DNA from: Rhodospirillaceae bacterium
Lineage (GTDB): Bacteria > Pseudomonadota > Alphaproteobacteria > UBA6615
DNA length: 64,000 nt
Direction: 5' to 3'
Assembly: GCA_038117265.1 (NCBI GenBank)
Contig: JAYOFO010000004.1
Coordinates: 18,816 to 82,815, forward strand
Positions 20,484-45,295 of the stretch are shown here, in pieces. The notes beneath the pieces were generated by a model. That model saw nothing but the letters and a program-made list of their open reading frames with translations. It searched no databases and had not been told where the DNA came from. The position numbers and the translations under genes were made by a program. Position 1 is the first letter of the stretch; each line of letters starts with the position of its first letter.

Positions 20484-20675
20484 CGCCTGCTCCCCTTCGG
20501 GCCGGGCCGTTGGTTTCGTCCGGCCTCCAATTTCCAAATTCTGCACCAGTTTCTACTTTTTTGGAAATTTGTTGACTCGACCCTGCACGAGCCGGTTCTA
20601 TCCTTGTCGTGAACTGCGCCGTCCAAGAAGCGCGGCGCGCCGACATTCGGGTTCAACCAGGGAGAAGACAGGATC

Positions 20676-21767: not shown

Positions 21768-21793
21768 CGCCCGGTCCGGGAAAGGCCCCGTAA

Positions 21794-22330: not shown

Positions 22331-22371
22331 CGGGCGGGCACGCGCACGAGGCAGAAGGGTAGTTCGCCGCC

Positions 22372-23706: not shown

Positions 23707-23731
23707 TCAGGTGCGGTCACCGCAAACGGAA

Positions 23732-23754
23732 GGGGCCGCCCGAAGGCGGCCCCG
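23732..23754. terminator. GC-rich hairpin between convergent dctM2 and dctP3; no clear U-run
   Basis: GGGGCCGCC-cgaa-GGCGGCCCC. Confidence 0.35.
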
Positions 23755-23781
23755 AAAGCATTGCTTTGCGATGTGGGGGTG

Positions 23782-25068: not shown

Positions 25069-25950
25069 ATGCAGATTTTCAAGGACCGTATCCCGTATTC
25101 GGCCATCGTCGACCGGCCGCCGTTCAAGCTGCCGGACGGCAAGCGGATGGCCGTGTGGATCATCGCCAACGTCGAGGAGTGGGACATCTCCCGGCCGATG
25201 CCGCGCACGGTCTTGCCGCCGCCCATGGGGGTGCCCCTGTTGCCCGACTTGCCGAACTGGTCGTGGCACGAATACGGCATGCGTGTCGGCTTCTGGCGCA
25301 TCCGCGATGCGCTGCGCGACCGCGGCATCCGGGCGACCATGGCGGTCAACGGCCGGGTCTGCGAGAACTATCCGCGTATCTGCGAGGCGGCACTGGAACT
25401 CGATTGGGAGTTCATGGGCCACGGCCACTTACAGGGCCCGATGCACAGGCACGACGACCAGCAGGAGCAGATCGACAATGCCTGCCGGGCGATCGAAAAA
25501 TTCTCGGGCAAGAAGGTGCGCGGCTGGGAGAGCCCGGGCCTGACCGAGACCTTCCAGACCATCGACTTTCTGCGGCGTGCGGGGATCGAGTACGTCGCCG
25601 ACTGGGTGCTCGATGACCAGCCGGTCGCGATCGAGACGACCGAGGGACCGATGTACTCGGTTCCCTACACGGTCGAGACCAACGACATCACCATGATGGC
25701 GCTGCAGCAGCACTCTTCGGACGAGATGTTCAGGCGTTCGAAGGACCAGTTCGACCGGCTCTATCAGGAGAGCGCGGATTCGGCGCGCATCATGTCGATC
25801 AGCCTGCACATGTACCTGACCGGCGCGCCGCACCGGATCAAGTATTTCGAGGACATTCTCGACTATATCCAGAGCCACACAGACGTGGCGATCGTGCCGG
25901 GAGAGGACATCCTCGACTGGTGGCTCGCCAGCGAGCAGGCACCGAAGTAG
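25069..25950 (+). CDS. Polysaccharide deacetylase family protein (PuuE/allantoinase-like)
   Basis: 293 aa; NodB-like fold hallmarks (DxxxxEEW, HGH, LHMYLTG). Confidence 0.6.
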   Translation: MQIFKDRIPYSAIVDRPPFKLPDGKRMAVWIIANVEEWDISRPMPRTVLPPPMGVPLLPDLPNWSWHEYGMRVGFWRIRDALRDRGIRATMAVNGRVCENYPRICEAALELDWEFMGHGHLQGPMHRHDDQQEQIDNACRAIEKFSGKKVRGWESPGLTETFQTIDFLRRAGIEYVADWVLDDQPVAIETTEGPMYSVPYTVETNDITMMALQQHSSDEMFRRSKDQFDRLYQESADSARIMSISLHMYLTGAPHRIKYFEDILDYIQSHTDVAIVPGEDILDWWLASEQAPK

Positions 25951-25963
25951 GCGAGGTACTTCC

Positions 25964-26893
25964 TTGGCTTTGTTGATCACGCCGCCGGTCACCGGCTCGG
26001 TCGGGCACTGGCGCGATTGCGTCGCGGCCGAGATCGACGATATCGAAATCCGGACATGGCCCGATGTGGGCGATCCGGCCGACATCGAATATCTGATGAC
26101 AGGGTTCCTCGACCTGGCCGAACTGCCCGAGATGCCGAACCTGCGGTTGTTGTTCCCGATGTTCGCGGGGCTCGACCATCTGCTCGCGCACCCGAAACTG
26201 CCCGACGTGCCCATCGTGCGGGTCGGGCCACCCAACGGCGATCCGGCGATGACCGAGTACGCGGTCCTGCACGTGCTGCGACACCACCGCCAGATGCCCG
26301 ACTATCTGGCGCAGCAGTGCGAGAAGGTCTGGAAGGTGCGGCCACAGAAGCAGCCATCCGAGCAGCGGGTCGGTTTCATGGGGTTCGGCGTGCTGGCGCA
26401 GCCGCCGGCGCACACGCTCGCCGGGCTCGGCTTCGACGTCGCGGCCTGGACGCGCACGCCGCGCGCTGATGCCGACATCGCGATCTTCGCAGGCGCCGAG
26501 GCGCTCGGGGATTTCCTTGCGCGCACTGACATCCTGGTCTGCCTGCTGCCGCTGACGCCCGAGACGGACGGGATCCTGTGCGCCGAAAATTTCGCGCGGA
26601 TGCCGGAGGGGGCGGCGATCGTCAATCTCGGGCGCGGTGCGCATGTCGTCGATGCCGACCTGATCGCCGCGCTCGACACTGGCCGGCTCTCGGCCGCGAC
26701 CCTCGATGCGACCAAGCCCGAACCGTTACCCGAGACGAGCCCCTTGTGGGACCATCCGCGCGTCACGATCATGCCGCATACGGCGCGCAGGGTGCGTGCC
26801 GAGGGCGTGGCGCCACAGGTCGCAGAAGCAATACGCCGCGACCGGGCCGGCGAGCCGCAGGACCAGGTGGTGGACAAGGCAGCGGGATACTGA
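25964..26893 (+). CDS. D-isomer-specific 2-hydroxyacid dehydrogenase (glyoxylate/hydroxypyruvate reductase A-like)
   Basis: 309 aa; GFMGFGVLA NAD-binding, NLGRGAHVVDADL, TIMPHTA catalytic His. TTG start is assumed. Confidence 0.6.
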   Translation: MALLITPPVTGSVGHWRDCVAAEIDDIEIRTWPDVGDPADIEYLMTGFLDLAELPEMPNLRLLFPMFAGLDHLLAHPKLPDVPIVRVGPPNGDPAMTEYAVLHVLRHHRQMPDYLAQQCEKVWKVRPQKQPSEQRVGFMGFGVLAQPPAHTLAGLGFDVAAWTRTPRADADIAIFAGAEALGDFLARTDILVCLLPLTPETDGILCAENFARMPEGAAIVNLGRGAHVVDADLIAALDTGRLSAATLDATKPEPLPETSPLWDHPRVTIMPHTARRVRAEGVAPQVAEAIRRDRAGEPQDQVVDKAAGY

Positions 26894-26909
26894 CGAAGGG
26901 AGAACTCTC

Positions 26910-27704
26910 ATGGCCTTGAACGACAGCCAGGTGGCGCAGGCCGCCGACGCGCTATTCGAAGCGTTTCGTGGACGGACGACCATTCCGGCCATCCCCGAGG
27001 GGGCCGGCCCGGCCGACGCGGCCGAGGCGGTGCAGGTGCAGGCTGCGCTGCTCGATCGAATCGGGCTGGCGGCGGCGGGCTACAAGGCCGGCTTCACCAA
27101 TCCGCCGGCACTGGAGAAGGCGGGGGCCAATGGCCCCATGTCGGGCGTCATGTTCCGCGACTTCACCGTGGCCAGCGGCGGCACCCTGCAGCGCGCCGAT
27201 ATTGGCACCGGGGCGCTGATCGAGGCCGAGGTCGCCTTCCGGATGGGCCGGGATCTCGCCCCGAGGGACGGCGGTTACACCGACGCCGAAGTCCTCGACG
27301 CCGCCGACAGCGCGATCATCGCTATTGAGGTGGCGGTGCCGCGCCTCGACAACCCGTTGGGCCAGCCGATGGTACATCTGGCCGCCGACAACGGCGCGGC
27401 GATGGGCTTCGTCCATGGCCCCGACATTCCCGACTGGCGGAACCGCGACCTGAAGGCGCTGGCGATCCGGCTGGTGTTCGACGGCGAGACGGTGGCCGAG
27501 GGGTTGCCTCTCGAGGCGCGCTGTGACGAGGTCTGGTCGCTCGCCTGGACGGTCAACCACTTCACCGGCCGCGGCTACACGATCTGGGCGGGCGACTATA
27601 TCACCACGGGCGCGGCCGCCGCGCCGTCGGCGCTGGGCGAGACGCGCGAGGTGGCCGCCCGCTACGACGGGGTCGGCGAGGTCGGCTTCTCGATCGCGGG
27701 GTGA
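26910..27704 (+). CDS. 2-keto-4-pentenoate hydratase / 2-oxohept-3-enedioate hydratase family protein
   Basis: 264 aa; MhpD/HpcG-like. RBS GAAGGGAGAA. Confidence 0.55.
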   Translation: MALNDSQVAQAADALFEAFRGRTTIPAIPEGAGPADAAEAVQVQAALLDRIGLAAAGYKAGFTNPPALEKAGANGPMSGVMFRDFTVASGGTLQRADIGTGALIEAEVAFRMGRDLAPRDGGYTDAEVLDAADSAIIAIEVAVPRLDNPLGQPMVHLAADNGAAMGFVHGPDIPDWRNRDLKALAIRLVFDGETVAEGLPLEARCDEVWSLAWTVNHFTGRGYTIWAGDYITTGAAAAPSALGETREVAARYDGVGEVGFSIAG

Positions 27705-28468
27705 GCGCGCTTCGCATCCTGCTCGTCGCGTTCGCGGTCCTCGTCGGCGTCGGCGGGGTCGCACCCGCACAGGACGGCGATCTCGATGCGCTTAAGAAGC
27801 GCCTGTTGCCGGGCATCAAGGGGGAGGACAACCGGCGGATCATCGATTCCAGCGACTATCCGTGGAGCGCGATCGGCCGGGTGGACACGCGCATCGGCGG
27901 GTTCTGCACCGGCACCGTGATCGGGCCGCGTGCGGTGCTGACGGCGGCGCACTGCCTGTGGAACAAGCGGACCCGCAACTGGCTGGTGCCCGACGCGGTC
28001 AATTTCCTGGCGGGCTACCGGCGCGGCGAGTTCATCGCGCGTGGCCGGGTGGTCGACTACACGCTGGGCGATCCGCTGGTGACCCCCGACGACGGCGCGC
28101 GGTTTCGGCCCAACGACTGGGCGATCCTGCGCCTGGCCGAGCCTATCGACGGGGTGACGGGCCGCCTGTCCCTCGGCCTGTCGGGGACGCCCGTCCGCGA
28201 GTACCTGCAGGCGGGCTACAGCAAGGACAAGCCGCACATCCTGACCGTCGACGAGGGGTGCCGGGTCGACGACGGCCCGGCGCGGCGGGAGTTCCTGTAT
28301 CACGCCTGCGATGCGGTCAGCGGCGATTCCGGCTCGCCGATCCTGGGCATCACGGACGATGCTCTGGTGATCCTGGGGGTCCACGTCGCCACGGGCCGGC
28401 GCAAGGTCGGCGAAAGCGTCGGCATCGCCATCCCGGTCGATTCCGTCGCCGACGCGGCGGGTCGCTGA
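27701..28468 (+). CDS. Secreted trypsin-like serine protease (S1 family)
   Basis: 255 aa; signal peptide; catalytic triad context TAAHC, D, GDSGSP. GTG start overlaps the hydratase stop (GTGA). Confidence 0.65.
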   Translation: MSALRILLVAFAVLVGVGGVAPAQDGDLDALKKRLLPGIKGEDNRRIIDSSDYPWSAIGRVDTRIGGFCTGTVIGPRAVLTAAHCLWNKRTRNWLVPDAVNFLAGYRRGEFIARGRVVDYTLGDPLVTPDDGARFRPNDWAILRLAEPIDGVTGRLSLGLSGTPVREYLQAGYSKDKPHILTVDEGCRVDDGPARREFLYHACDAVSGDSGSPILGITDDALVILGVHVATGRRKVGESVGIAIPVDSVADAAGR

Positions 28469-28534
28469 CGTGAGACTTGCCAGAACGGTCCGGACATCCT
28501 ATTTGAGAATCGTTATCAACGCCCGAGAGGCACA

Positions 28535-29134
28535 ATGCCCGTAGCCGACCACACACCTGCGGAACTTCTGCTCGACCGGCTGATCAACCGGAACTCGATG
28601 CCGCCACGCCTGATGGGTGAGCAGGGCCCGTCGCGTGCGGAGATATCGCGCATGCTTGCGGCGGCGGTCAGCGCGCCGGATCACGGCAAGGTGCGGCCCT
28701 GGCGGTTCCATATCGTCGAGGGTGCGGCGCGGGTCGCGCTGGGCGAACTGTTCGCGAAGGCGCTTCTCGAACGCGAACCCTTCGCACCGACCGAGGCGAT
28801 CGAGAAGGAGAAGGGGCGCCCGCTGCGCGCACCGCTGATCATCGCCGTCTGTGCCAAGGTGGATCCGTCGCGTGGCGCCAAGGTGCCCGTGGTCGAGCAG
28901 GTCGTGGCGACCGCGGCGGCGATGGAGCATCTGGTGCTCGCGGCCAATGCGCTCGGCTACGGCGCCATCGTGCTCACCGGGCGCAACGCCCACGATCCGA
29001 TGGTGCGCAGGGCCTTCGACCTCGACGGCGAAGACGAGCTGGTCGGCTTCGTCTATATCGGCGCGGGTGACGAGCCGGCACCGGCCAAGCCGCGCCCCGA
29101 CCCGGACGAATTCACGTCCGACTGGACGGGGTAG
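28535..29134 (+). CDS. Nitroreductase family protein
   Basis: 199 aa nitroreductase fold. Confidence 0.6.
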   Translation: MPVADHTPAELLLDRLINRNSMPPRLMGEQGPSRAEISRMLAAAVSAPDHGKVRPWRFHIVEGAARVALGELFAKALLEREPFAPTEAIEKEKGRPLRAPLIIAVCAKVDPSRGAKVPVVEQVVATAAAMEHLVLAANALGYGAIVLTGRNAHDPMVRRAFDLDGEDELVGFVYIGAGDEPAPAKPRPDPDEFTSDWTG

Positions 29135-29143
29135 GGACAAACG

Positions 29144-29176
29144 AAAAAAAAGGCCGGGTCGTGGACCCGGCCTTTT
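29144..29176. terminator. Bidirectional rho-independent terminator
   Basis: AAAAAAAAGGCCGGGTC-gtgg-ACCCGGCCTTTT. Confidence 0.7.
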
Positions 29177-29199
29177 CGGTTTCGTGAGCTCGCGGTGCG

Positions 29200-30228
29200 C
29201 TAGAACGTCTCGTTCCAGTGGACCATCGGCAGGCCCGCCACCGGCGAGGTGAAGTAGGGCAGGTTGGTCGCACGCAGCGAGCCGACATAGACCGTCTTCA
29301 GATCCGGCCCGCCGAAGGTGATCGAGGCGCACCAGGTGGCGATCTCGCCACCCATCTCCATCAGCAGGTCCGCGGTGACCGTCTCGCTCTGGAAGGCGTC
29401 GTTCAGCCGCTTCACCTCTTCGGGACTGGAATCGTCGAAGATGATGTGCAGGTCGCCGTCGGGCTTGATGGCGAAGATGCCGTCGTTCATCACGTGCGTG
29501 CCCCACAGGTTGCCGTACGCATCGAAGGCGATGCCGTCGATCAGGCGTCCGTGGTCGCTCGGCCCGTAGATTTCCTTGGGCCCGAGGCTGCCGTCGTCCG
29601 CGATCTTGTAGCGCGCGATGTTGCGTCCGCAGGTCTGGACGACGTAGAGCCACTCCTCGTTGGCGTCGAGCTTGCACTCGTTGGAGAAGTGCACGTCGTC
29701 GGTCACGATCCGCACGCCCTTGCCCTCCTCGTAGAGCAGGATGCGGCCGTCGACGATGTTCGGGCTGATCGCCTTCGGCCAGTCGTGGAGCATGGTCGAG
29801 ACCGTGATCCAGATGCGGTTCTTGGAATCGCGGCACACGAAGTTGACCTTGCCGATCGGCTCGCCGTCGACCGTGTCGAACATGACCGTGGTCTCGCCGG
29901 TTCGGGTCATCCGCTCGAGGCAGTCGGTTCCGAAGTTCGAGATCAGGATGTCGCCATTGTCGGCGAAGGCCAGCCCGTTCGGCAGCGTGCCGTCGACGAA
30001 CTTGTTGCCGTCGTCGCCGCCCGCCTCGAACGCCGCCGCGTCGTGCGACTGGGTGATGATCTCCTGGCTGCCGTCGGGGCGAATGCGGACGACACCGCCG
30101 CGCGCGTCGGCTGCCCACAGGTCGCCGTTCTTCTCGGCCAGGATGCATTCGGGGCGCTGCAATCCTTCGCCGAGGAACTTGAAATCGCTCTTAGTAAGCG
30201 TGAATCCGTCGATCGGATTTCCGGCCAT
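29200..30228 (-). CDS. SMP-30/gluconolactonase/LRE family protein (six-bladed beta-propeller lactonase)
   Basis: 342 aa. RBS GGGAGGAAACG. Confidence 0.6.
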   Translation of the reverse strand: MAGNPIDGFTLTKSDFKFLGEGLQRPECILAEKNGDLWAADARGGVVRIRPDGSQEIITQSHDAAAFEAGGDDGNKFVDGTLPNGLAFADNGDILISNFGTDCLERMTRTGETTVMFDTVDGEPIGKVNFVCRDSKNRIWITVSTMLHDWPKAISPNIVDGRILLYEEGKGVRIVTDDVHFSNECKLDANEEWLYVVQTCGRNIARYKIADDGSLGPKEIYGPSDHGRLIDGIAFDAYGNLWGTHVMNDGIFAIKPDGDLHIIFDDSSPEEVKRLNDAFQSETVTADLLMEMGGEIATWCASITFGGPDLKTVYVGSLRATNLPYFTSPVAGLPMVHWNETF

Positions 30229-30262
30229 TGTCGTTTCCTCCCGGTAATTGTCCGTCTGAACG

Positions 30263-30296
30263 AAAAGCGCCGCGCGATGGAGATCACGCGGCGCTG
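30263..30296 (-). terminator. Rho-independent terminator after the BKACE gene, read on the minus strand
   Basis: Minus-strand AGCGCCGCG-tgatctccatcgc-GCGGCGCT followed by TTTTCG. Confidence 0.5.
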
Positions 30297-30330
30297 TTCG
30301 TCTGCTTCGCTGGTGCGTTCCGGCTGGCGG

Positions 30331-31266
30331 CTAGAACTTCACCATGTCGCCACCCTTCAGATCGAGGATCTGGCGGGCTTCGTCGGGCGTCGCGATCTCG
30401 AGCGAAAGGTCCTCGCAGATCCGGCGGATCTTGGCGACCTGCTGGGCGTTCGATTCCGCGAGCTTGCCCTTGCCGATGTAGAGCGAGTCCTCGAGGCCGA
30501 CACGCACCGAGCCGCCCATCATCGCGGCCTGGGTGGTGAAGTTCAGCTGGTGGCGACCGGCGGCCAGCACCGAGAAGACATAGTCGTCGCCGAACAGGCG
30601 ATCGGCGGTCGCCTTCATGTGGATCAGGTGATCCAGCTCGGCACCGATGCCGCCCATGATGCCGAAGATGAACTGCAGGAAGATTGGCGGCTTCAGGCGG
30701 CCCGTCGAGTAGAAGTAGTGCGTGTTGTAGAGGTGCCCGATGTCGTAGCACTCGTGCTCGAACTTCACGCCGCGCTTATCGGCCAGCTCGGTGATGATGT
30801 AGTCGATCTGCTTGAAGGTGTTGGTGAAGATGAAGTCGTCCGTCATCTCCAGGTAGGGCTTCTCCCAGTCGTACTTCCAGTTGTCGAAGCGGCTGGCCGC
30901 CCCGAAGATCCCGAAGTTCATCGAGCCCATGTTGAGCGAGGTCACCTCCGGCTCGGCCCGCACGGCCGCGGCGATGCGCTCGTCGACAGTCATGCCCAGG
31001 CCGCCACCGGTGGTGATGTTCACCACGGCGTCGGTGTTCTGCTTGATGCGCGGCAGGAACTGCATGAACACGTCGGGGTCCGGCGTCGGCTTGCCGTCTT
31101 CCGGGTCGCGAGCGTGCAGGTGGATGATCGACGCGCCGGCCTCGGCCGCCTCGATCGAGGACTGGGCGATCTCGTCCGGCGTGATCGGAAGGTGTTCCGA
31201 CATCGTCGGCGTGTGAATCGCGCCCGTCACCGCGCACGAGATGATGACTTTGGTCTGCTTCGCCAT
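30331..31266 (-). CDS. 3-keto-5-aminohexanoate cleavage enzyme family protein (BKACE/DUF849)
   Basis: 311 aa from MAKQTKVIISCAVTG (GGGGGAGA RBS); BKACE TIM-barrel blocks (HLHARD, VNITTGGG). Confidence 0.7.
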   Translation of the reverse strand: MAKQTKVIISCAVTGAIHTPTMSEHLPITPDEIAQSSIEAAEAGASIIHLHARDPEDGKPTPDPDVFMQFLPRIKQNTDAVVNITTGGGLGMTVDERIAAAVRAEPEVTSLNMGSMNFGIFGAASRFDNWKYDWEKPYLEMTDDFIFTNTFKQIDYIITELADKRGVKFEHECYDIGHLYNTHYFYSTGRLKPPIFLQFIFGIMGGIGAELDHLIHMKATADRLFGDDYVFSVLAAGRHQLNFTTQAAMMGGSVRVGLEDSLYIGKGKLAESNAQQVAKIRRICEDLSLEIATPDEARQILDLKGGDMVKF

Positions 31267-31466
31267 GGTGTCTCCCCCTGAATTCGAAGACCGTTTTGGT
31301 GTTTGGTTGACCCGATATTGGGTCGTACGGGCACCGGCTGTCCAGTCGCAAGGCAGACTATTCACATGCGTGAAGTGCCGCCCGCGACGGGCCCCGGCAC
31401 CCCGTCGTATCGGAGCGTCACGAACCTACGCGCGCGCCGTCGGCAAGTCCACAAACGGACCCCGAT

Positions 31467-32318
31467 TCAGCCCAGTTCCAGCGACGTGATTCCGTACATC
31501 CCCACGAAGCGCATGCGCGGCGTATTGCCGTGATACATCCGGATGGTCTCCATCGCCGGCGCGAGCCCCTTGCGTGCGAAAAGCTTCTGGGCCGCATCGT
31601 TGGCGGCCGGCGGGTCGACGAAGACCGGCCCGCCCTCGGCACGGGCGGCAAAGGCATCGAACAGGCGTTCCGCCGTCGCCGCATCGTCGGCGAACAGCGG
31701 CCCGATGCCGTGTCCCTCGTGCAACGGCCGGATGACCCCGTAGCCGGTGATGGTGCCGTCCGCCGTCGCGGCGAGGGCGGTGTGCCCTGGTGCCGTGAGC
31801 CAGGTCGACAGGAACCGGGTGCGCGCCACGGGATAATATTCGCCGTCATAGGCGTCGATGGCATCGACATGGTCGGGGCCGACGGTCTCGATGCCGCCGG
31901 TGTCTCCCGCACCCGGCGTCGGGATGCCGCCGAAGCGGATATTCCTGTGGGCCCTGAAAAAGCCCGACTTGCGATACGCCAGCTCGTGCTCCGAGGCGCC
32001 GTTGGTGCCGATGTCCATGACCCGGCCGCTCTGCTTCAGCGCATGCTGCCACAGGATCTGGCCGATACCCTGGCCGCGCAGGTCGGGATGGACGACATGC
32101 GCGCCGAGGAATCCGAAATGGCGCCCATAGCGCACCAGCGAGATGCCGCCGACGAGTTCCCCGCCGCGATGTGCGGCCCAGAACCCTTCCGGATCGGTTT
32201 CCCAGAAGCAGGCGGCGTCGCCCGGTCCTGGGTTGCGCCCGGCCGCGGCCAGCCACTCCATCAGCGTGTCCAATTCGTCGCGGCTGGCGCGAACAATCTC
32301 GATATCGTCCATGGTCAT
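31467..32318 (-). CDS. GNAT family N-acetyltransferase
   Basis: About 283 aa; acetyl-CoA binding motif RGQGIGQILWQHAL. Start MTMDD or MDD is uncertain. Confidence 0.55.
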   Translation of the reverse strand: MTMDDIEIVRASRDELDTLMEWLAAAGRNPGPGDAACFWETDPEGFWAAHRGGELVGGISLVRYGRHFGFLGAHVVHPDLRGQGIGQILWQHALKQSGRVMDIGTNGASEHELAYRKSGFFRAHRNIRFGGIPTPGAGDTGGIETVGPDHVDAIDAYDGEYYPVARTRFLSTWLTAPGHTALAATADGTITGYGVIRPLHEGHGIGPLFADDAATAERLFDAFAARAEGGPVFVDPPAANDAAQKLFARKGLAPAMETIRMYHGNTPRMRFVGMYGITSLELG

Positions 32319-32465
32319 CCCGTAGAGCCGTTCGGCGCGGACGCGCCCGGCGGAAAAAGTGTGTCTGTATAGCCGAGAACGCGCGGTCACTCCATGCGGG
32401 TGCGGTTGACAGTTTCTCGGGCGCGGACGTTCAATGATAGGCCGACAAAGAGGGGAGGCCGGGTC

Positions 32466-33731: not shown

Positions 33732-33757
33732 GCGCCACGACAGGGGGAGAAGACACG

Positions 33758-34714
33758 ATGAAACTGGTGACGTTCACAGGCGGCGGCGGGCCGCGCGTCG
33801 GCGCGCTGACCGATGGCGACAGCCGGGTGGTCGACCTCGCGGCGGGCGACGATCAGCCGTATTTCGCGACCATGCTGGCGCTGATCGAGGCGGGCGACCC
33901 GGCCGTGGCGCGTGCGAAGGAAATCGTCGCGGCTGGCGGGGCGTCGACGCCGCTTGCCGATGTGACCCTGCTGACGCCCGTGCCGCAGCCGCCGCAGATC
34001 CGCGACTTCCTCTGCTTCGAGCGGCACCTGATCAACTCGTTCGACATGCTGCGCCGCAAGAAGGCGCAGGCCGAGCCGGACCCCGAAGCGGCGCTTAAGC
34101 GCTTCGAGGAGGAGGGCGCCTTCGCGATCCCGCAGATCTGGTACGACCAGCCATTGTATTACAAGCCGAGCCGGCTCGGCGTGATCGGCACCGATGTCGA
34201 CGTGATCTGGCCGCACTTCTCCAACCTGCTCGACTACGAGATGGAGTTTGGCTGCTGGCTCGGCAAGGCGGGCAAGGACGTCACGCCCGAGCAGGCGAAG
34301 GGCATGATCTTCGGCTACTCGATCTTCAACGACATCTCCGCCCGCGATACCCAGGCCTATGAGATGCCCGCCGGCTTCGGCCCGGGCAAGGGCAAGGACT
34401 TCGACACCGGCAACATCATCGGCCCGTGCATCGTTACCGCCGATGCGTTCGACCCGTCCGACGCCGAGATGATCGTGCGGATCAACGGCGAGGAGCGCTC
34501 GCGCGGCAATTCGGGCGAGATGTTCCACAAGTTCGAGGATTGCATCGCCCACACCTCGCGCGCCGAGACCGTGTTCCCCGGCGAGTTCTTCGCCTCGGGC
34601 ACCGTCGGCTGGGGCTGCGGGCTGGAGCACGACCGCTTCCTCGAGGATGGCGATGTCATCGAGCTCGAGGTCACCGGGATCGGCATCCTGCGCAACCGGG
34701 TGGTCAAGCCTTAG
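33758..34714 (+). CDS. Fumarylacetoacetate hydrolase (FAH) family protein
   Basis: 318 aa; FAH-fold blocks (GTDVDVIWP, EMEFGCW). RBS GGGGGAGAAG. Confidence 0.65.
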   Translation: MKLVTFTGGGGPRVGALTDGDSRVVDLAAGDDQPYFATMLALIEAGDPAVARAKEIVAAGGASTPLADVTLLTPVPQPPQIRDFLCFERHLINSFDMLRRKKAQAEPDPEAALKRFEEEGAFAIPQIWYDQPLYYKPSRLGVIGTDVDVIWPHFSNLLDYEMEFGCWLGKAGKDVTPEQAKGMIFGYSIFNDISARDTQAYEMPAGFGPGKGKDFDTGNIIGPCIVTADAFDPSDAEMIVRINGEERSRGNSGEMFHKFEDCIAHTSRAETVFPGEFFASGTVGWGCGLEHDRFLEDGDVIELEVTGIGILRNRVVKP

Positions 34715-34841
34715 ATCGAAGCGGCCTGCCGGTGCCGCGTTGATCCAGATCATGGATTTCCCGTGCGCCGCCCGCAAATCTGCGCCGAAGTGGGGCGCGT
34801 GCGCGTTCCGCGAGGCAACAACCAAACCATAGGGGGACGCG

Positions 34842-36029
34842 ATGGATGAAATCTTCATCCGCAACGACGATCAGCGGGCAATCCTGAATTCCGTCAGGCG
34901 GTTCGTAGAGGCCGAGGTCACGCCGCGCGCGGCCGAACTCGACGCGCAGAAGGACCCGGAAGACAGTTTCTCGTGGGAGATCGTCGAAGCGGCCGACCGG
35001 ATGGGCCTGCGCACCATGTCGCTGTCGGAGGAGTATGGCGGCATGGACACCGACACGCTGACGACCGCCATGGTGGTCGAGGAGCTGGCGCGCGGCGATC
35101 TGGGCATCTCGGTGGTCTTCGCCCAGACGCTGAAGATCGGCAAGCATATGGAGCGGGTACTCAACGAGGAACAGCGGGCGCGCACCCTGATCCCGTTCCG
35201 CGACGATCCGCGCGCGATCCTGAGCATCTGCGGCACCGAGCCCGAGAACGGCTCGAACGGCATCGTCGGCTATCCCGCCCCCTACACGACCCGCGCGGTG
35301 AAGACCGACGGCGGCTGGATCGCCAACGGGATGAAGCATTTCATCTCCAACTCGAACCGCTCGCGTTACTTCCTGGTGCAGATGCAGACCGACCCGGCGA
35401 AGTCGATGCTCGACGGGGCGACCTGCTTCCTGCTCGAACGCGGGCATCCCGGTTTCACCGTCGGACGCGTCCACGACAAGATGGGCGAGCGGCTGGCCAA
35501 CAATTCCGAGCTGCTCTTCACCGACTGCTTCATCCCCGACGAGAACGTCGTCGGCGAGGTCAACCAGGGGCACATCATCCGGCGCACCTTCGGCCCGTCG
35601 AGCAACATCTTCGCGGCCTGCAGCATCCTGGGCGTGGCGGTGGCGTGTTACGAGAAATCGCTGGCCTGGGCACAGACGCGCGTGCAGGGCGGCAAGCTGC
35701 TGATCGAGCATGACGGCATCCGGGCCCAGATCGCAGAAATGAAGATGCTGATCGACGCCTCGCGGTCCTACATCCACCGGGCGGCCTGGCTCGCCGACCA
35801 TCGCGACGAGGGATGGGACTGGACGCTGGGCTCGCTGCCCAAGGTGATGGCCTCGCAGGCGGCGTGGCAGATCGCCACCTGGACCCTCGAGATCCACGGC
35901 GGCCACGGCTACATGAAGGAGGCGGGCGTGGAGAAGCTGGTGCGCGACGCGGCGGCCTTCCTGCACTCCGACGGGGTCAACCGGGCGCTGCTGCTGCGCG
36001 GCGCGAACCAGATACTCGCCGCGAGCTAG
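34842..36029 (+). CDS. Acyl-CoA dehydrogenase family protein
   Basis: 395 aa; ACAD N-, middle- and C-domains. Confidence 0.75.
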   Translation: MDEIFIRNDDQRAILNSVRRFVEAEVTPRAAELDAQKDPEDSFSWEIVEAADRMGLRTMSLSEEYGGMDTDTLTTAMVVEELARGDLGISVVFAQTLKIGKHMERVLNEEQRARTLIPFRDDPRAILSICGTEPENGSNGIVGYPAPYTTRAVKTDGGWIANGMKHFISNSNRSRYFLVQMQTDPAKSMLDGATCFLLERGHPGFTVGRVHDKMGERLANNSELLFTDCFIPDENVVGEVNQGHIIRRTFGPSSNIFAACSILGVAVACYEKSLAWAQTRVQGGKLLIEHDGIRAQIAEMKMLIDASRSYIHRAAWLADHRDEGWDWTLGSLPKVMASQAAWQIATWTLEIHGGHGYMKEAGVEKLVRDAAAFLHSDGVNRALLLRGANQILAAS

Positions 36030-36049
36030 CCGCTCGATATACCGGACGC

Positions 36050-36577
36050 TCACGACACCCAGAGCGCCTCCCGGCGCCACGGCGCCGGAACGCAAAGCGT
36101 GCCGTGGGGATGGTGCCCGTCGTCCTGCAGGTCGCGTGACTTCCAGGCGCCGTCCCACGCGTTCGGCAGCGGATAGGGTGGTGCGACACCTCTCTCGGGC
36201 GCAAATCCGAAGCGCCCGTAATAGGCAGGATCGCCGAGGACGCAGGCCAGCGACGCGTCTGTCTGCGCGACCCGCGCGAGGCCGGCCCGAATAAGGGCGC
36301 TGCCCACGCCGCGGCCCTTTCGGTCGGGTGCAACCGCCAGCGGGCCAAGGAGCGCGATGCGGGCGGTGGCGCCGGCGATTCCGCACGCTGTGAAGACGAT
36401 GTGCCCCGCCAAGTCGTTTTCGGCCGTCGCGACGAGGGAAACGACACCGGTTCCCCGTCCGAGGAGTTCCGAGACGAGGGGCAGCAAGTCCTCGCCGGGG
36501 AATGCCGCCGCGTACAGTTCGCGTATCGCGGGAACATCGCCCGGGCGGCCCGCGCGAACTGAAATCTCGTCGGTCAT
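36050..36577 (-). CDS. GNAT family N-acetyltransferase
   Basis: About 175 aa from MTDEISVRAGRPGDVPAIRELY; RGVGSALIRAGL CoA-binding motif. Start uncertain; the track gives 36613. Confidence 0.55.
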   Translation of the reverse strand: MTDEISVRAGRPGDVPAIRELYAAAFPGEDLLPLVSELLGRGTGVVSLVATAENDLAGHIVFTACGIAGATARIALLGPLAVAPDRKGRGVGSALIRAGLARVAQTDASLACVLGDPAYYGRFGFAPERGVAPPYPLPNAWDGAWKSRDLQDDGHHPHGTLCVPAPWRREALWVS

Positions 36578-36715
36578 TGCTGGGGGGATAGCGCTTGCGA
36601 CGGGGCTTGTCATCCGGGGTTGGCGCCGTGTTCGACGCGTTCTGGTTCCTTTGACCCGTTGGGGTCCTGCGCTACCTTAGCGGTCAACGAACAATGCGCC
36701 GGGGAGAGATCGACG

Positions 36716-37705
36716 ATGGCGAAGTGGGAATACACCAAGGGCCTGCACGAGGTCGGAAACGGGCTCTGGGCCTATCTCCTGCCCGATGGCGGCTGGTGCT
36801 GGTCGAACACGGGCCTGATCGTCGATGGCGACCAGACCTTGCTGGTCGACACGCTGTTCGACCTGCCGATGACGGCGGAGATGCTCGACACGATGCGTGG
36901 CTCCGTGCCGGCGGCCAGGACCATCGAGAAGCTGGTCAACACCCACGCCAACGCCGACCACACCTGGGGCAACCAGCTGGTCCGGGACGCCGAGATCATC
37001 GCCTCGACCGGCTGTGCGGAGGAGTTCGACCATTTCCTGCCCGAGACGCTACTCGAGCTGATGGGCAAGTCGCGCGAGCTGGGTACGCTGGGCGAGTTCC
37101 TCGAACATTGCTTCTCGCCCTTCGACATTCGCGGGATCGAGCTGACGCCGCCGACCACGACCTTCAGCGACCAGAAGACGGTTGCGGTGGGCGACCGGCG
37201 GGTCGAGCTCTACAGCGTCGGCCCGGCGCACACGCGTGGCGACGTGCTCGTCTTCCTGCCCGACGAGAAGCTGATGTTCGCGGGCGACATCCTGTTCGTG
37301 GGCGGACATCCCGTCATCTGGGACGGGCCGATCGAGAACTGGCGCAAGGCCTGCGACAAGATCCTCGAACTCGACCCCGATGTGATCGTGCCCGGCCATG
37401 GCCCGGTGTCGGGCAAGGATGAGGTGCGCCGGTTCCGCGCCTATCTGGACGAGATGGAGCACGACGCGCGCAAGCGCTTCGATGCCGGTCTCGACGAGCT
37501 GGAGGCGGCAAAGGACATTGCGCTCGACAATTTCGCGGACTGGAACGATGCTGAGCGGGTCTATGCCAATGTCGCGGCGCTTTACCGTGAATTCCGCGGG
37601 CAGGGGCCCGACGAGGGCATGACACCGATGGAGGTGTTCGCGGGCATGGCCGAGCTGTTCAAGCATCAGCAGGCACACGGTCACACGCATCGGCACAGTC
37701 ACTAG
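36716..37705 (+). CDS. MBL-fold metallo-hydrolase
   Basis: 329 aa; HANADH metal-binding motif; His-rich C-terminus. RBS GGGGAGAG. Confidence 0.7.
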   Translation: MAKWEYTKGLHEVGNGLWAYLLPDGGWCWSNTGLIVDGDQTLLVDTLFDLPMTAEMLDTMRGSVPAARTIEKLVNTHANADHTWGNQLVRDAEIIASTGCAEEFDHFLPETLLELMGKSRELGTLGEFLEHCFSPFDIRGIELTPPTTTFSDQKTVAVGDRRVELYSVGPAHTRGDVLVFLPDEKLMFAGDILFVGGHPVIWDGPIENWRKACDKILELDPDVIVPGHGPVSGKDEVRRFRAYLDEMEHDARKRFDAGLDELEAAKDIALDNFADWNDAERVYANVAALYREFRGQGPDEGMTPMEVFAGMAELFKHQQAHGHTHRHSH

Positions 37706-37720
37706 GGAAATGCGTCCGCG

Positions 37721-39259
37721 ATGAATCTCAACCAGCTGCTCGTGCGCGCGGCGCAGAGCTTTCCCGACCGCACGGCGATCGGCCACGGCACGCGGGCCTA
37801 CTGCGATTATGCGACCCTGGGGCGCCGCGCCGCGGGGATCGCGGGTGCCCTGCAGGCGATGGGCCTGGCGCGCGACGACCGGGTCGCGATCTTCATGACC
37901 AACTGCCCCGAGTTCCTCGAAGTGTTCCACGGCGCGCTGCACGCCGGCATGTGCGCGCTGCCGATCAACTCCAAGCTCCATGAGAAGGAGCTGGCGTTCA
38001 TCCTCGACAATGCGCGCGCGCGGGTGCTGTTCGTCACGCCCGATCACGCCGAGCAGGGCGCCCGGGCGATCGCGGCGGCGGGCAGCGATGCGCGGCTGGT
38101 GGTGGTCGGCCAGGGCGACGCGTACGAAAGGCTGCGCGCCGGCGATCCCGTCGCCATGGCCGAGCGCGCCGGCGACGACCTGGCATGGCTGTTCTACACC
38201 TCGGGCACCACGGGCCAACCCAAGGGGGCGATGCTGACCCACCGGAACCTGTGGGAGATGACCCTCAACTACTTCGTCGACATCGACCGCTTCCCGCCCG
38301 ACGGCGTGGCGCTGCATCCCGCGCCGATGTCGCACGGCTCGGGCTGCTACGGCATTCCGCACCTGGCCCGCTTCGCCGCCCAGGTGGTGCCCGAATCCGG
38401 CGGCTTCGAGCCGGCCGAGATCTTCGAACTGTGCCGCCACTACGCGGATGTCTCGTTCTTCGCCGCGCCGACCATGGTCAAGCGGCTGGTGGAACATCCG
38501 GGCGGCGACGAGGCGCCGGGCCTGCGGACCATCACCTATGGCGGCGGGCCGATGTATGTCGCCGACCTGAAGCGCGCGCTCGACCGGTTCGGTTCGAAGT
38601 TCGTCCAGCTCTACGGCCAGGGCGAGGCGCCGATGACGATCACGGTGCTGCCGCGCGAGGACCATGTGGCGACCGACCATCCGCGCTACGAGGAACGGCT
38701 AGGTTCGGTCGGGTTCGCCCAGTCAGTGGTCGAGGTGCGCGTCGTCGACCCCGACGACAACCCGGTGCCCACGGGCGACGTGGGCGAGGTCATCGTGCGC
38801 GGCGACGTTATCATGAAGGGCTACTGGGAGCGCCCCGACGCCAATGCCGACACCCTGCGCGGCGGCTGGCTGCACACCGGCGACATGGCGGCCTTCGACG
38901 AGGATGGCTACCTGACCCTGAAGGACCGCTCGAAGGATCTGATCATCTCCGGCGGCTCGAACATCTACCCGCGCGAGATCGAGGAGGTGTTGCTGCGCCA
39001 TCCCGCCGTGCTGGAATGCGCCGTCGTCGGCCAGCCGCACCCGGAATGGGGCGAGGCGGTCGTCGCCTTCGTTGCGCCGGTGGAGGGGCGGGAGATCGAC
39101 ACGAGCGAACTCGACCGGCTCTGTCTCGACAACATCGCGCGCTTCAAGCGGCCCAAGCAGTATCGCATCGCCGCCACGCTGCCGAAGAACAACTACGGCA
39201 AGATCGTGAAGCGCGAGCTGCGCAACCAGCTCGACGCGGAAGCGCGCGACGAGAAGTAA
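37721..39259 (+). CDS. AMP-dependent acyl-CoA synthetase/ligase (class I adenylate-forming)
   Basis: 512 aa; YTSGTTGQPKG AMP motif, GWLHTGD, NYGKI. Confidence 0.8.
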   Translation: MNLNQLLVRAAQSFPDRTAIGHGTRAYCDYATLGRRAAGIAGALQAMGLARDDRVAIFMTNCPEFLEVFHGALHAGMCALPINSKLHEKELAFILDNARARVLFVTPDHAEQGARAIAAAGSDARLVVVGQGDAYERLRAGDPVAMAERAGDDLAWLFYTSGTTGQPKGAMLTHRNLWEMTLNYFVDIDRFPPDGVALHPAPMSHGSGCYGIPHLARFAAQVVPESGGFEPAEIFELCRHYADVSFFAAPTMVKRLVEHPGGDEAPGLRTITYGGGPMYVADLKRALDRFGSKFVQLYGQGEAPMTITVLPREDHVATDHPRYEERLGSVGFAQSVVEVRVVDPDDNPVPTGDVGEVIVRGDVIMKGYWERPDANADTLRGGWLHTGDMAAFDEDGYLTLKDRSKDLIISGGSNIYPREIEEVLLRHPAVLECAVVGQPHPEWGEAVVAFVAPVEGREIDTSELDRLCLDNIARFKRPKQYRIAATLPKNNYGKIVKRELRNQLDAEARDEK

Positions 39260-39276
39260 ATTCCGGGGAAATTGCC

Positions 39277-40230
39277 ATGCCGTCACCCGTATGCCCCGGC
39301 CTGCAGGCCGTCTTCGACGAGATCAAGGAATCGGGAGCTGCCCTGCCGGACCCGGCCGATGTCGGCGTCGAGGCGGCGCGCGCGGCACGCGGGCGCTACT
39401 ACGCGTTCCTGAACCAGCCGGATGCTCTCCTCGACGTCGACGAGGTGCGTGACGTCACGATCGATGGGCCGCACGGGCCGTTCCTGCTGCGCCTCTACTT
39501 CCCGACCGCGGAGCGCCCGGCCCCCGTCACGGTCTTCATCCATGGCGGCGGCTGGTGGACCGGCGATGTCGCCGTCTACGACCAGATCTGCCGCCGGCTC
39601 GCGTTCGAGAGCGGGTGCGCCGTCGCCAGCGTCGACTACCGGCTGTGGCCCGAGCACCGCTTTCCTGTGCCGGTGGACGAGACCATGGCGGCCGCGGACT
39701 GGGTGCGGAGCGAGGGGGCAGCGAACGGCCTCGATCCCGACCGGATTGCGTTCTGCGGCGATTCAGCCGGCGCGACCCTGGCGCTCTATGCGGGGGCCGA
39801 ACTCAAGCACACCGGTGCGGTGCGGGCCCTCGCGCTGGTCTATGGGGTCTATCAGATCGACGTGGACACGCCGTCCTGGCGCGAGATCGGCGACGGCACC
39901 TACGGGCTGACCGTCGCGCAGATGCGGTGGATATGGGACGGCTACCTGAAGGGCCAGGACGTGGAGCGCACGGATCCCCGGGCGGCCCCCCTGTATGCCG
40001 ACCTGTCGGGCCTGCCCTACACCTGGGTCATGGTGGGCGATCTCGATCCGCTGGTCGACGACAGCCGTGCTCTTGCCGAACGGCTCGCGGCCGCAGGCGT
40101 TCCCCACCAGCTCAAGGTGGAGGAGGGAATGACCCACTTCATCTGGATGTGGCAGCGCCTCTACCAGCGTTCGCGCGCCTCGATTGCCGAGGCCGGCGCG
40201 GTCCTGAAGCGGGAGTTGCGGCGCGGCTGA
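39277..40230 (+). CDS. Alpha/beta hydrolase, esterase/lipase (HSL family)
   Basis: 317 aa; HGGGW oxyanion hole, GDSAG nucleophile elbow. Confidence 0.75.
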   Translation: MPSPVCPGLQAVFDEIKESGAALPDPADVGVEAARAARGRYYAFLNQPDALLDVDEVRDVTIDGPHGPFLLRLYFPTAERPAPVTVFIHGGGWWTGDVAVYDQICRRLAFESGCAVASVDYRLWPEHRFPVPVDETMAAADWVRSEGAANGLDPDRIAFCGDSAGATLALYAGAELKHTGAVRALALVYGVYQIDVDTPSWREIGDGTYGLTVAQMRWIWDGYLKGQDVERTDPRAAPLYADLSGLPYTWVMVGDLDPLVDDSRALAERLAAAGVPHQLKVEEGMTHFIWMWQRLYQRSRASIAEAGAVLKRELRRG

Positions 40231-40240
40231 CGGGCCGCGG

Positions 40241-41146
40241 CTACTCCTTGGCCATCACCGCGGTCAAATTCTCCAGCGCATCGGTGTAGCCGCGCGGGTC
40301 GCGCATCTCGACGATCTGCGGCCAGAGTTCCGCGATCCGCTCGGGCGTCATGGGCGTGCGCGGATCGACGTGGACGCCGGCGCTCTCCATCACCTGGATG
40401 CGCGAGTAGTAGCCGGCGGTCGCGGCGATCAGGTTGCCGGAATCGGTGCAATCCTCGCTGACCAGATAGGCGACCATGGCGGCGACGGCATCGGGTGTTA
40501 CCAGGTCGGCATCGTAGGTGTCGAAGATGCCCGATGGCTCTGCGATTCGGGTGGCGGCGAGCGGTGCGAGTGCGTTCGCGGTGATGTTGTAGCGAGCGCC
40601 CTCGAGCTTCAGCGTGTTCACCAGCCCGACGACCGCCATCTTCGCCGCGGAATAGTTGGTCTGGCCGAAATTGCCATAGAGACCGGCATTGGACGAGACC
40701 ATCAGGATGCGGCCGTAATTCGCCTCGCGCATGTGGGGAAACGCCGCATGGGTGACATAGACAGAGCCCAGCAGGTGCACCTTCACGACGAATTCGTAGT
40801 CGTCGAGGTCCATCTTGTGGAAGGACTTGTCGCGCACGATGCCGGCGTTGTTGATGACGATGTCGATGCCGCCGAAGGCATCGAGCGCGGTCTGGACGAT
40901 GTTGGCGGCGCTGTCGCGCTCGGCCACGCTGTCGTAGTTGGCGACGGCCTCGCCGCCGGCCGCGCGAATTTCCTCGACCACGGCATCGGCGGGGGACGCC
41001 GATCCACCGCTGCCGTCGATCGCGCCGCCCAGATCGTTGACCACGACCTTTGCGCCGCGCGCACCCAGCGCCAGGGCATAGCTCCGTCCCAGCCCGTTGC
41101 CCGCGCCGGTCACGATGGCGACCCGGCCGTCAAATCCGATTGTCAT
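40241..41146 (-). CDS. SDR family oxidoreductase (MFE-2-like 3-hydroxyacyl-CoA dehydrogenase type)
   Basis: 301 aa; TGAGNGLG, NNAG, YSAAK motifs. Confidence 0.75.
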   Translation of the reverse strand: MTIGFDGRVAIVTGAGNGLGRSYALALGARGAKVVVNDLGGAIDGSGGSASPADAVVEEIRAAGGEAVANYDSVAERDSAANIVQTALDAFGGIDIVINNAGIVRDKSFHKMDLDDYEFVVKVHLLGSVYVTHAAFPHMREANYGRILMVSSNAGLYGNFGQTNYSAAKMAVVGLVNTLKLEGARYNITANALAPLAATRIAEPSGIFDTYDADLVTPDAVAAMVAYLVSEDCTDSGNLIAATAGYYSRIQVMESAGVHVDPRTPMTPERIAELWPQIVEMRDPRGYTDALENLTAVMAKE

Positions 41147-42507: not shown

Positions 42508-42519
42508 CCGGGTGCTTGG

Positions 42520-43257: not shown

Positions 43258-43572
43258 ATTCGCCTTCAAAATCATGTGTTTTGACCGCGCGGCGGCCCGC
43301 GAATTCGCTTAAGTTGCGCGCGATCGGACCGAAGTTCGGCATCGGCCGGCGCGCACGACGCGTGCGGGCGGGTTGAAACGCCGGTTTCAAACGCCTAAAT
43401 CGGTGCGCGATCGGCCAGCGGGGCTCGGGAGCATCCGCTGCGAGGAAGAGATACGCCGGCTATCTGGACGGCAACGGCGAGCCATCGGCGGGGACGGACT
43501 CACGAATCCGGACCATTAGCTGTCGACCGTATCAGCCGTCGCGGTGAACCGAGACGGGAGGAGGGGACGGAC

Positions 43573-45292: not shown

Positions 45293-45295
45293 GCC

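Follow-up and report, generated by a model that had tools for sequence, protein, structure and literature searches.

A BKACE gene cluster of uncultured marine Alphaproteobacteria, probably a clade-specific assembly of three conserved catabolic modules

The BKACE family, whose enzymes cleave beta-keto acids with acetyl-CoA, is a textbook example of functional diversity that stays hidden within one family, and a physiological role in aerobes is still sought for its 3,5-dioxohexanoate/3-oxohexanoate group. Here we describe a BKACE gene and the cluster around it (25069-41146) in a 64,000-nucleotide stretch of contig JAYOFO010000004.1 of a Rhodospirillaceae bacterium (assembly GCA_038117265.1, positions 18,816 to 82,815), referred to below as the window. 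Among described systems, the phloroglucinol cluster of Clostridium scatologenes has a BKACE-family end step, in which 3,5-dioxohexanoate and acetyl-CoA give acetoacetate and acetoacetyl-CoA, followed by a thiolase; the proven pathway consists of PGR (an SDR), DPGC (a PF04199 cyclase), TfD (of the 3-hydroxyacyl-CoA dehydrogenase family) and TAL (the BKACE) with the thiolase, and marine Alpha- and Gammaproteobacteria as well as Mesorhizobium are reported to have it (PMC10470551). BKACE15 of P. denitrificans has 3-oxohexanoate, 3,5-dioxohexanoate, 5-hydroxy-3-oxohexanoate and 3-oxopentanoate as confirmed substrates; its physiological role is unestablished, and its authors suspect aromatic-compound degradation (PMC11961710). 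Kce of lysine fermentation and the enzymes that cleave dehydrocarnitine share the fold and the acetyl-CoA-dependent, Claisen-type chemistry. Non-phosphorylative deoxy-sugar acid routes combine a lactonase with SDRs and an FAH-family hydrolase of 2,4-diketo-3-deoxy acids (LRA6), families that also occur in the locus described here.

The likeness to the phloroglucinol cluster lies in the end step and in the fact that relatives of the window BKACE are operonic with PF04199 cyclases and SDRs, both of which the window also contains; unlike that cluster, the window has no TfD-type gene (tblastn), its cyclases lie 23 kb away and are of unproven function, and its BKACE is paired with an SMP30-type lactonase (SGL), divergent from operons for hydrolases, a CoA ligase and an ACAD-family flavoprotein. 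With BKACE15 and the rest of a group that was reportedly defined by Bastard and colleagues in 2014 as acting on hydrophobic or neutral substrates (8RIO, 3E02, 3E49), the window protein shares full-length matches of 366-443 bits, an NCBIfam family and the HLH and GLED motifs, but not the gene neighbourhood. It differs from Kce in scoring below the Kce cut-off, and from the deoxy-sugar routes in that the cluster has no sugar dehydrogenase or dehydratase, its FAH protein scores far below the cut-off of 500, and the CoA enzymes and BKACE are foreign to such routes. The terminal chemistry is already known; what differs is the set of partners, namely the SMP30 lactonase, an atypical MBL-fold metallohydrolase (MBL), the FAH enzyme, an amidohydrolase, the CoA ligase and an ACAD of aspartate type. 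Our literature searches returned nothing relevant on this gene combination or on a triacetic acid lactone lactonase gene. The most likely reading is that three conserved catabolic modules stand together here in an assembly peculiar to one clade, and that the region is neither a single operon nor a transferred island. The first module (25069-29134, with a GntR regulator and TRAP transporter genes upstream) is an operon of deacetylase, 2-hydroxyacid dehydrogenase and MhpD-like genes, the second is BKACE-SGL (31266-29200), and the third (32466-40230 and the adjoining SDR gene) runs from amidohydrolase-FAH-ACAD to MBL, acyl-CoA synthetase and esterase. From the families of their products, the second and third modules may act together to break down an anionic compound of ester or lactone type to acetoacetate and an acyl-CoA, a reading to which we give a probability of about 0.5.

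Genes were called from codon-position GC content and cross-checked against the genes on identical metagenome contigs, and families were assigned by Pfam and NCBIfam profile searches (Table 1); mechanical lists of open reading frames are rich in false frames because the window is uniformly GC-rich (0.60-0.71 across 2-kb windows, without a step change). The region holds 17 genes in at least six transcription units: the plus-strand left arm of deacetylase, 2-hydroxyacid dehydrogenase, MhpD/DmpH-like, protease and nitroreductase genes (25069-29134, with successive intergenic gaps of 13, 16, -4 and 66 nt); the minus-strand pair of BKACE then SGL (31266-29200); plus-strand amidohydrolase, FAH and ACAD genes (32466-36029); plus-strand MBL, acyl-CoA synthetase and HSL-type esterase genes (36716-40230); and single minus-strand genes for two GNAT acetyltransferases and an SDR. 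A hairpin between the convergent nitroreductase and SGL genes marks the boundary between left arm and core. An open reading frame at 31530-32372 (+) was rejected as spurious, codon-position GC indicating a minus-strand GNAT gene there.

A first-pass annotation had described the region as a catabolic island, and much of its inventory stands: the seven enzyme families that it named and the two GNATs all lie inside 25069-41146, the GNAT genes enclose amidohydrolase-FAH-ACAD, and there is no regulator or transporter inside, the TRAP genes (DctPQM and a second DctP) lying just upstream and a TauE gene beyond the right edge. It had not listed the deacetylase, 2-hydroxyacid dehydrogenase, protease, nitroreductase, SGL or SDR, the last being the right-edge gene, with the esterase gene immediately before it. 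The idea of a catabolic set is borne out by the ester, amide and lactone hydrolases, the CoA activation, the ACAD and the BKACE, but the number of transcription units and the terminator speak against a single unit, and "island" fits only in the sense of a cluster. We see no sign of a horizontally acquired genomic island: GC is even (0.63-0.70 throughout), a tRNA scan of the window found 0 genes, and there is no integrase or transposase among the annotated window genes. An Rfam scan of the window gave 0 matches, and a scan for promoter consensus sequences showed no enrichment (2 found vs 2.0 expected).

The evidence for conserved modules comes first from close relatives. Exact-protein look-ups, together with a scan of metagenomes for which an alignment of the fast-evolving MBL was used, yielded 37 contigs with an MBL at least 60% identical, all of them marine, some from Tara Oceans, and all from uncultured Alphaproteobacteria with orthologues 60-100% identical to those of the window. 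Counting only loci with flanks long enough to tell, the MBL gene is linked to FAH in all 30 informative loci, to BKACE in 22/22 and to SGL in 20/20; the corresponding counts are 24/28 for the amidohydrolase, 20/29 for ACAD (0-2 copies), 16/19 for the acyl-CoA synthetase, 11/16 for the esterase, 12/14 for the 301-aa SDR and 10/12 for TauE, after which the same 245-aa gene and an ABC system come every time. Clustering exceeds chance: the same genes recur jointly in 37 related contigs, and the MBL-FAH-BKACE-SGL linkage is unbroken in 20-30 informative loci despite insertions and losses between these genes. Since synteny is kept there, the genes are not unlinked among relatives within the clade, and the conserved linkage to which the first-pass annotation had looked holds to that extent; it does not hold beyond the clade, where only SGL accompanies BKACE.

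The contigs fall into two sub-clades. In clade I, to which the window belongs, the left arm of 2-hydroxyacid dehydrogenase, MhpD, protease and nitroreductase adjoins SGL, there is no thiolase, and left-arm order is the same in seven loci (L001, L100, L106, L108, L118, L119 and L123 in our numbering). In clade II (L089, L093, L096/97, L113, L114, L120, L124), an acetyl-CoA C-acyltransferase (thiolase) gene, whose product passes PRK07108 (625.6 vs 615 bits), lies between BKACE and SGL, and a 266-aa SDR gene follows the acyl-CoA synthetase gene; the left arm is absent beside the cluster in L089, L093, L096/97, L113, L120 and L124, with unrelated genes in its place, and L125 was also scored as lacking the nitroreductase. 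A left arm unlinked to the core is rejected on the metagenome scan, since one sub-clade of the two keeps it in place. Most gains and losses of genes fall at three hot spots, BKACE/amidohydrolase, FAH/MBL and MBL/acyl-CoA synthetase, and the two GNAT genes of the window are hot-spot insertions: the larger has counterparts 48-64% identical in relatives and is absent from clade II, and the small one occurs only in contigs identical to the window (L002-L004), a lineage-specific insertion. Between the window and L001, which represents a second lineage that co-occurs with it, the BKACE protein is 100% identical and the BKACE-SGL DNA (29200-31359) 88-96% identical, with flanks at about 80%, which could reflect strong purifying selection or recent exchange by recombination.

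Two smaller kernels recur far outside this clade. For the first, we took one genome per species (GTDB) and searched 80 loci, with BKACEs 63-72% identical among the matches listed, by tblastn with all window proteins. Six of them have an SGL (57-61% identical), in every case as the next gene downstream of BKACE and in constant order (L012, L054, L059, L063, L065 and L075; at about 9100-12000 in each); other cluster genes accompany the distant BKACE in 0-2 of the 80 loci each, with SDR matches that are about 30% identical and generic. SGL is the only deeply conserved BKACE partner. In all six loci a PF04199 cyclase gene lies directly upstream of BKACE and adjoins a gene for a TetR regulator with a TetR_C_30 domain; in L012, DctPQM lies between this regulator and cyclase-BKACE-SGL, and a Peripla_BP_6 binding protein comes next in L063 and L075. 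Hyphomicrobiales carry this kernel, Bosea and Xanthobacter among them (Bosea vestrisii and Xanthobacter sp. NM-25 are cultured carriers), and our literature search found no description of a cyclase-BKACE-SMP30 lactonase operon. PF04199 cyclases are operonic with this BKACE group more generally, one type in 9/80 loci, and other frequent neighbours among the 80 are SDRs (25/80, median gap 54 bp) and a 3HCDH-family gene (14-17/80). SGL has no visible signal peptide, and its table entry is that of a putative cytoplasmic lactonase. The 102-nt gap between BKACE and SGL in the window holds a GC-rich stem-loop at 30266-30295 (-). In seven other lineages compensatory base changes preserve its stem, while only some have the T tail; it probably serves to stabilise or attenuate the transcript between the two genes. 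The thiolase gene of clade II fills this gap.

The second kernel pairs MBL with FAH. Among 53 metagenome loci, mostly from soil, with MBLs 50-58% identical, 20 have informative flanks (MBL 50-56% identical), and in 9 of these (L130, L136, L142, L155, L159, L161, L163, L169, L171) an FAH homologue (42-56% identical) lies near MBL, within 820 bp in seven cases. The typical arrangement is FAH-TetR_C_30-(DctPQM)-MBL, with the TetR gene between or beside the two; a DctM 52-56% identical to the window's is found in four distant MBL loci, DctPQM lies directly upstream of MBL in L136 and L161, the two of the four that were mapped, and L136 additionally has an acyl-CoA synthetase homologue (50% identical) next to MBL. 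The DctM proteins of L012 (BKACE kernel), L136 (MBL kernel) and the window are mutually 52-61% identical (52-53% for the window's against the other two) and 37-39% identical to the DctM of another TRAP system in the window. A TetR protein of one kernel type is 38-39% identical to one of the other, a range also seen among the TetRs of MBL-FAH loci. This shared TetR_C_30/DctM context is the best evidence that MBL-FAH(-acyl-CoA synthetase) and BKACE-SGL may share one metabolic theme, and it makes the window's TRAP system an uptake candidate. Homologues of the left-arm deacetylase (64-67% identical) also adjoin TRAP systems, and in L098 one lies within 6 kb of a cyclase-cyclase-BKACE operon.

The family of the BKACE itself is well resolved by profile scores. 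Its start is the ATG at 31266 (the longest open reading frame, of 344 aa, does not begin at the true start), and the protein scores 532 bits against a cut-off of 430 on NF053538, the equivalog model for 3,5-dioxohexanoate:acetyl-CoA acetone transferase. It falls below the cut-offs of both Kce models, with 251 vs 382 bits on the lysine model NF052387 and 188 vs 725 bits on that of the fused lyase/Kce, and its matches in the PDB are 3e02 (442.6 bits), 3e49 (392) and BKACE15, 8rio (366), with Kce structures at only 135. The HLH (H49, H51) and GLED (E259, D260) residues are invariant in 11 orthologues and align with those of 3e02 and 3e49; we take H49, H51, E259 and D260 to correspond to the zinc ligands of Kce reported by Bellinzoni et al. 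2011. Catalytic and zinc residues are present, unlike in the inactive G7-type group. By these comparisons the protein is assigned to the 3,5-dioxohexanoate (triacetate)/3-oxohexanoate group and not to the lysine type.

Among the partner enzymes, the amidohydrolase has as its nearest solved relatives Cc2672 (PDB 3mtw, 147.6 bits), prolidase-type proteins and ochratoxinase (4c5y, 76.6 bits), and reaches no NCBIfam cut-off (227.8 vs 500 bits on NF051886); these nearest relatives suggest an N-acyl-amino-acid carboxypeptidase type. FAH-family hydrolases cut 2,4- and 3,5-diketo acids. The FAH protein of the cluster, with a best PDB match to 6iym (109.7 bits), HpcE-type decarboxylases and isomerases and LRA6 (8gsr, 76 bits) as its nearest relatives and no equivalog reached (best NF053535, 91.6 vs 500 bits), is predicted to act on beta-dicarbonyl acids, whether as a C-C hydrolase, a decarboxylase or an isomerase. 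In the ACAD, alignment with 1UKW places an aspartate (SDG) where the catalytic glutamate of the SCAD/MCAD type (YEG) is expected, and the aspartate is kept in five orthologues (L001, L089, two copies in L093, and L096). The MBL has the motif HANADH in place of HxHxDH, its second histidine replaced by asparagine, invariant in eight orthologues that are 60-100% identical; its closest PDB match reaches only 58 bits, its nearest relatives are B1 beta-lactamases and SoxH-like proteins, and the JGI label is "cyclase". The SDR at the right edge is a candidate 3-hydroxyacyl dehydrogenase from its profile matches.

From the gene families, operon layout, linkage and BKACE assignment we infer a catalytic sequence and a type of substrate. 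A carboxylate-bearing ester or lactone compound would be taken up, probably through the TRAP system, and MBL, the esterase and SGL, joined by the amidohydrolase in loci that have one, would open it by hydrolysis; the FAH-family enzyme would cut a beta-dicarbonyl intermediate, and the CoA ligase would turn the released acids into CoA esters for oxidation by the ACAD-like flavoprotein and the SDR. SGL may deliver a free C5-C6 beta-keto acid from a lactone (3,5-dioxohexanoate, 5-hydroxy-3-oxohexanoate or 3-oxohexanoate), from which BKACE, with acetyl-CoA, would form acetoacetate and acetoacetyl-, 3-hydroxybutyryl- or butyryl-CoA. In clade II the thiolase encoded between BKACE and SGL would complete the breakdown, a position that fits acetoacetyl-CoA as product. 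For the substrate, the best lead is a route that forms triacetate, as those for phloroglucinol or triketide lactones would.

Several observations weigh against cooperation along these lines. The cluster has no enoyl-CoA hydratase. The lineage of L115, L118 and L125 has no acyl-CoA synthetase gene beside MBL, and L115 and L125, which have enough flank, also lack the esterase and SDR; ACAD, the esterase, the amidohydrolase, the thiolase and the 266-aa SDR are each missing in some lineages. As the clade is narrow (orthologues 60-92% identical) and synteny extends into TauE, an unknown 245-aa gene and ABC genes, shared ancestry explains part of the linkage. In a control, BKACEs from every neighbourhood type scored 500-543 bits on NF053538, a model that does not discriminate context and so assigns the family and not the in-vivo substrate. 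SGL has no sequence relative in the PDB at E < 1e-5, and a single-sequence AlphaFold2 model of it (mean pLDDT 38) is too poor for its fold to be read. The window lineage has no TetR, and with DctP only 31-38% identical between kernels, a common ligand does not follow from the shared transporter type.

A wider and more tentative extension is that TetR_C_30-(TRAP)-MBL(HANADH)-FAH and (PF04199 cyclase)-BKACE-SMP30 are halves of one widespread undescribed pathway, found in soil Hyphomicrobiales and abundant marine Alphaproteobacteria, that might act on a common lactone or beta-diketone natural product, with the propeller lactonase passing a free beta-keto acid straight to BKACE and the atypical MBL replacing a cyclase-type ring hydrolase; we hold this to be less likely than not. 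Substrates of this kind may be triacetic-acid-lactone-like or reduced phloroglucinol-like compounds of algae or plants.

The cluster could also consist of neighbours by descent, that is, of functionally independent small operons, as is typical of catabolic neighbourhoods in Alphaproteobacteria, that co-occur through recent ancestry and share no pathway. In both sub-clades synteny runs on unchanged through TauE and the 245-aa gene to where the ABC system begins, and these have no apparent functional link to the cluster; there is at least one strand switch per unit boundary in addition to a strong terminator; and, besides the variable presence of five genes described above, BKACE homologues at 83% and 79% identity and MBL homologues at 57-58% identity occur in unrelated contexts. 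The window moreover carries four TRAP systems and many other catabolic genes. Descent accounts less well for a core of four genes that stays intact while genes between them are gained and lost, and for two kernels that recur independently in distant taxa with the same regulator type and DctM subfamily, and we therefore hold it to be unlikely as a full explanation, though deserving of attention.

A more specific alternative makes BKACE the terminal triacetate lyase of a phloroglucinol-type pathway, fed by breakdown products of brown-algal phlorotannins or flavonoid A-rings, in which an SDR and three tandem PF04199 cyclases elsewhere in the window (3023-7089) supply the reductase and ring hydrolase, and the hydrolases, acyl-CoA synthetase and ACAD handle conjugates or side chains. 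The passing score of BKACE on the 3,5-dioxohexanoate model, the thiolase of the sister sub-clade, and the SDR and 3HCDH-family neighbours of distant BKACEs all suit it, as does the window's type of cyclase, which shares an operon with BKACE in L098 and L031 and in Mesorhizobium L092 is 8 kb away from it. Against it, in addition to the missing TfD-type gene and the distant cyclases, the cyclases are not known to be orthologues of DPGC (substrate residues Trp20 and Tyr22), which has no solved structure, and match no NCBIfam model and no characterised PDB relative (5ibz, their best match, is uncharacterised), the window SDR at 3023-3931 shares only about 33% identity with SDRs found beside BKACE in other loci, and SGL, MBL, FAH and the amidohydrolase have no explained role in the known pathway. 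NCBIfam models for phloroglucinol reductase, dihydrophloroglucinol hydrolase and TfD gave no match to the SDRs, cyclases and 3HCDH proteins that we tested. In this complete form the scheme seems improbable.

Degradation of 3-oxo-acyl-homoserine lactones (AHLs) or N-acyl amino acids, with SGL or MBL as lactonase, the amidohydrolase releasing the amino acid and a free 3-oxo acid, BKACE cleaving the 3-oxo acid and the acyl-CoA synthetase and ACAD on unsubstituted chains, is more doubtful still. The amidohydrolase's nearest solved relatives do cleave N-acyl amino acids bearing a free carboxylate, the related BKACE15 is confirmed to accept 3-oxohexanoate, and the distant BKACE-SGL pair adjoins a PF04199 protein, a family to which isatin hydrolase and other amide hydrolases belong. 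Yet the amidohydrolase is missing in the lineage of L096/97, L120 and L124, in which the other genes are kept, no AHL lactonase is among the 60 PDB matches listed for MBL, and FAH has no part in the scheme. TRAP transporters require an anionic substrate, and intact AHLs are not anionic. Finally, the first-pass annotation raised a carnitine (dehydrocarnitine) or lysine-derived 3-keto-5-aminohexanoate route; BKACE members are known for both, and sources give the protein the label "3-keto-5-aminohexanoate cleavage protein". This route is very improbable given the Kce scores above, the lack of any match in the window to a 3-hydroxyacyl-CoA/carnitine-dehydrogenase-family gene (from L028, tblastn), and annotated cluster genes that include nothing recognised as a lysine aminomutase or 3-aminobutyryl-CoA lyase, two enzymes for which no separate search was made.

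Table 1. Features of the 25069-41146 region and its immediate flanks, with profile matches and remarks (window coordinates).
Feature	Coordinates	Strand	Matches and remarks
GntR/FCD regulator	19770-20546	-	PF00392 61 bits, PF07729 61 bits; divergent from TRAP operon; outside region
TRAP DctP-DctQ-DctM	20676-23706	+	PF03480, PF04290, PF06808; DctP at 20676-21767; candidate uptake system
Second, orphan DctP solute-binding protein	23782-24861	-	PF03480 60.7 bits; 42% identical to DctP1
PuuE-like polysaccharide deacetylase	25069-25950	+	left-arm operon
GhrA-like 2-hydroxyacid dehydrogenase	25964-26893	+	left-arm operon
MhpD/DmpH-like hydratase/decarboxylase	26910-27704	+	left-arm operon; weak FAH-superfamily match
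Secreted trypsin-like protease	27701-28468	+	left-arm operon
Nitroreductase	28535-29134	+	left-arm operon
Bidirectional terminator-like hairpin	29147-29177	both	14-pair stem, T runs on both strands; between convergent nitroreductase and SGL genes
SGL, SMP30/gluconolactonase-family, putative cytoplasmic lactonase	29200-30228	-	PF08450 77.6 bits, E = 1.5e-21
BKACE	30331-31266	-	PF05853 (DUF849) 352.8 bits, profile positions 1-274 of 274
GNAT + Acetyltransf_18 protein	31467-32312	-	PF18014 93 bits, PF00583 55 bits
Amidohydrolase	32466-33731	+	PF01979 93.6 bits
FAH-family enzyme	33758-34714	+	PF01557 172 bits
ACAD-family flavoprotein	34842-36029	+	PF02771, PF02770, PF00441 (three ACAD domains)
Small GNAT	36050-36613	-	PF13527 35 bits
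MBL-fold metallohydrolase	36716-37705	+	PF00753 95.7 bits
Acyl-CoA synthetase	37721-39259	+	PF00501 257.9 bits, PF13193 75.9 bits
HSL-family esterase (Abhydrolase_3)	39277-40230	+	PF07859 199.8 bits; HGGGW and GDSAG motifs
301-aa SDR, PRK07791-like	40241-41146	-	PF00106 145 bits; NF005861 238.8 bits, below cut-off of 373
TauE/SafE-family anion permease	41584-42507	+	PF01925 114.6 bits; outside region

The whole window is a dense catabolic neighbourhood. The SDR gene at 3023-3931 (-) is followed by the three tandem PF04199 cyclase genes (3936-4973, 4998-6041 and 6037-7089), whose products are 55-60% mutually identical, with the same type in L098 at 76% identity; by analogy with the phloroglucinol system, they may supply ring-opening steps upstream of BKACE. 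Adjoining this block are genes for a deiodinase-related protein (2148-2969, -) and for an HsaA-like oxygenase subunit of a flavin-dependent monooxygenase (797-2074; 300 bits where the cut-off is 450). The minus strand also encodes an acetoin-dehydrogenase-like set of E1 alpha (10719-11705), E1 beta (9701-10849) and an AcoC-like protein with lipoyl and alpha/beta-hydrolase domains (~8577-9690), the last of which, like the HisD-like dehydrogenase encoded next to the set at ~7290-8516 (+), was identified from its translation only. At least three further TRAP components or systems occur among 11827-15312, 20676-24861 and 60277-62478, including a 733-aa DctM-family protein that resembles a DctQM fusion. 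Two molybdenum hydroxylase gene sets are present, one with its flavoprotein at 15896-16822 and one at 54505-57715, the latter accompanied by CoxE/CoxD-like genes (52085-54337) and XdhC (51042-51740). The GntR/FCD gene beside the TRAP operon is also called in L001-L005. To the right of the cluster, 41584-48293 encodes, in order, TauE, the 245-aa protein, a GldA-like ABC ATPase, an ABC-2 permease, an ABC_transp_aux protein and a DUF4340 protein.

For the BKACE family, the gain would be one further catabolic pathway and not a new principle, and the locus offers an entry point to the physiology of this BKACE group: it provides an SMP30-type lactonase partner, an atypical MBL and FAH pair, and a shared regulator and transporter type that could be used to find the substrate. 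Possible sources of that substrate are breakdown products of algal polyketides or phlorotannins. As the carriers are uncultured marine Alphaproteobacteria present in many ocean metagenomes, the substrate may be relevant as a constituent of the dissolved organic matter of the sea.

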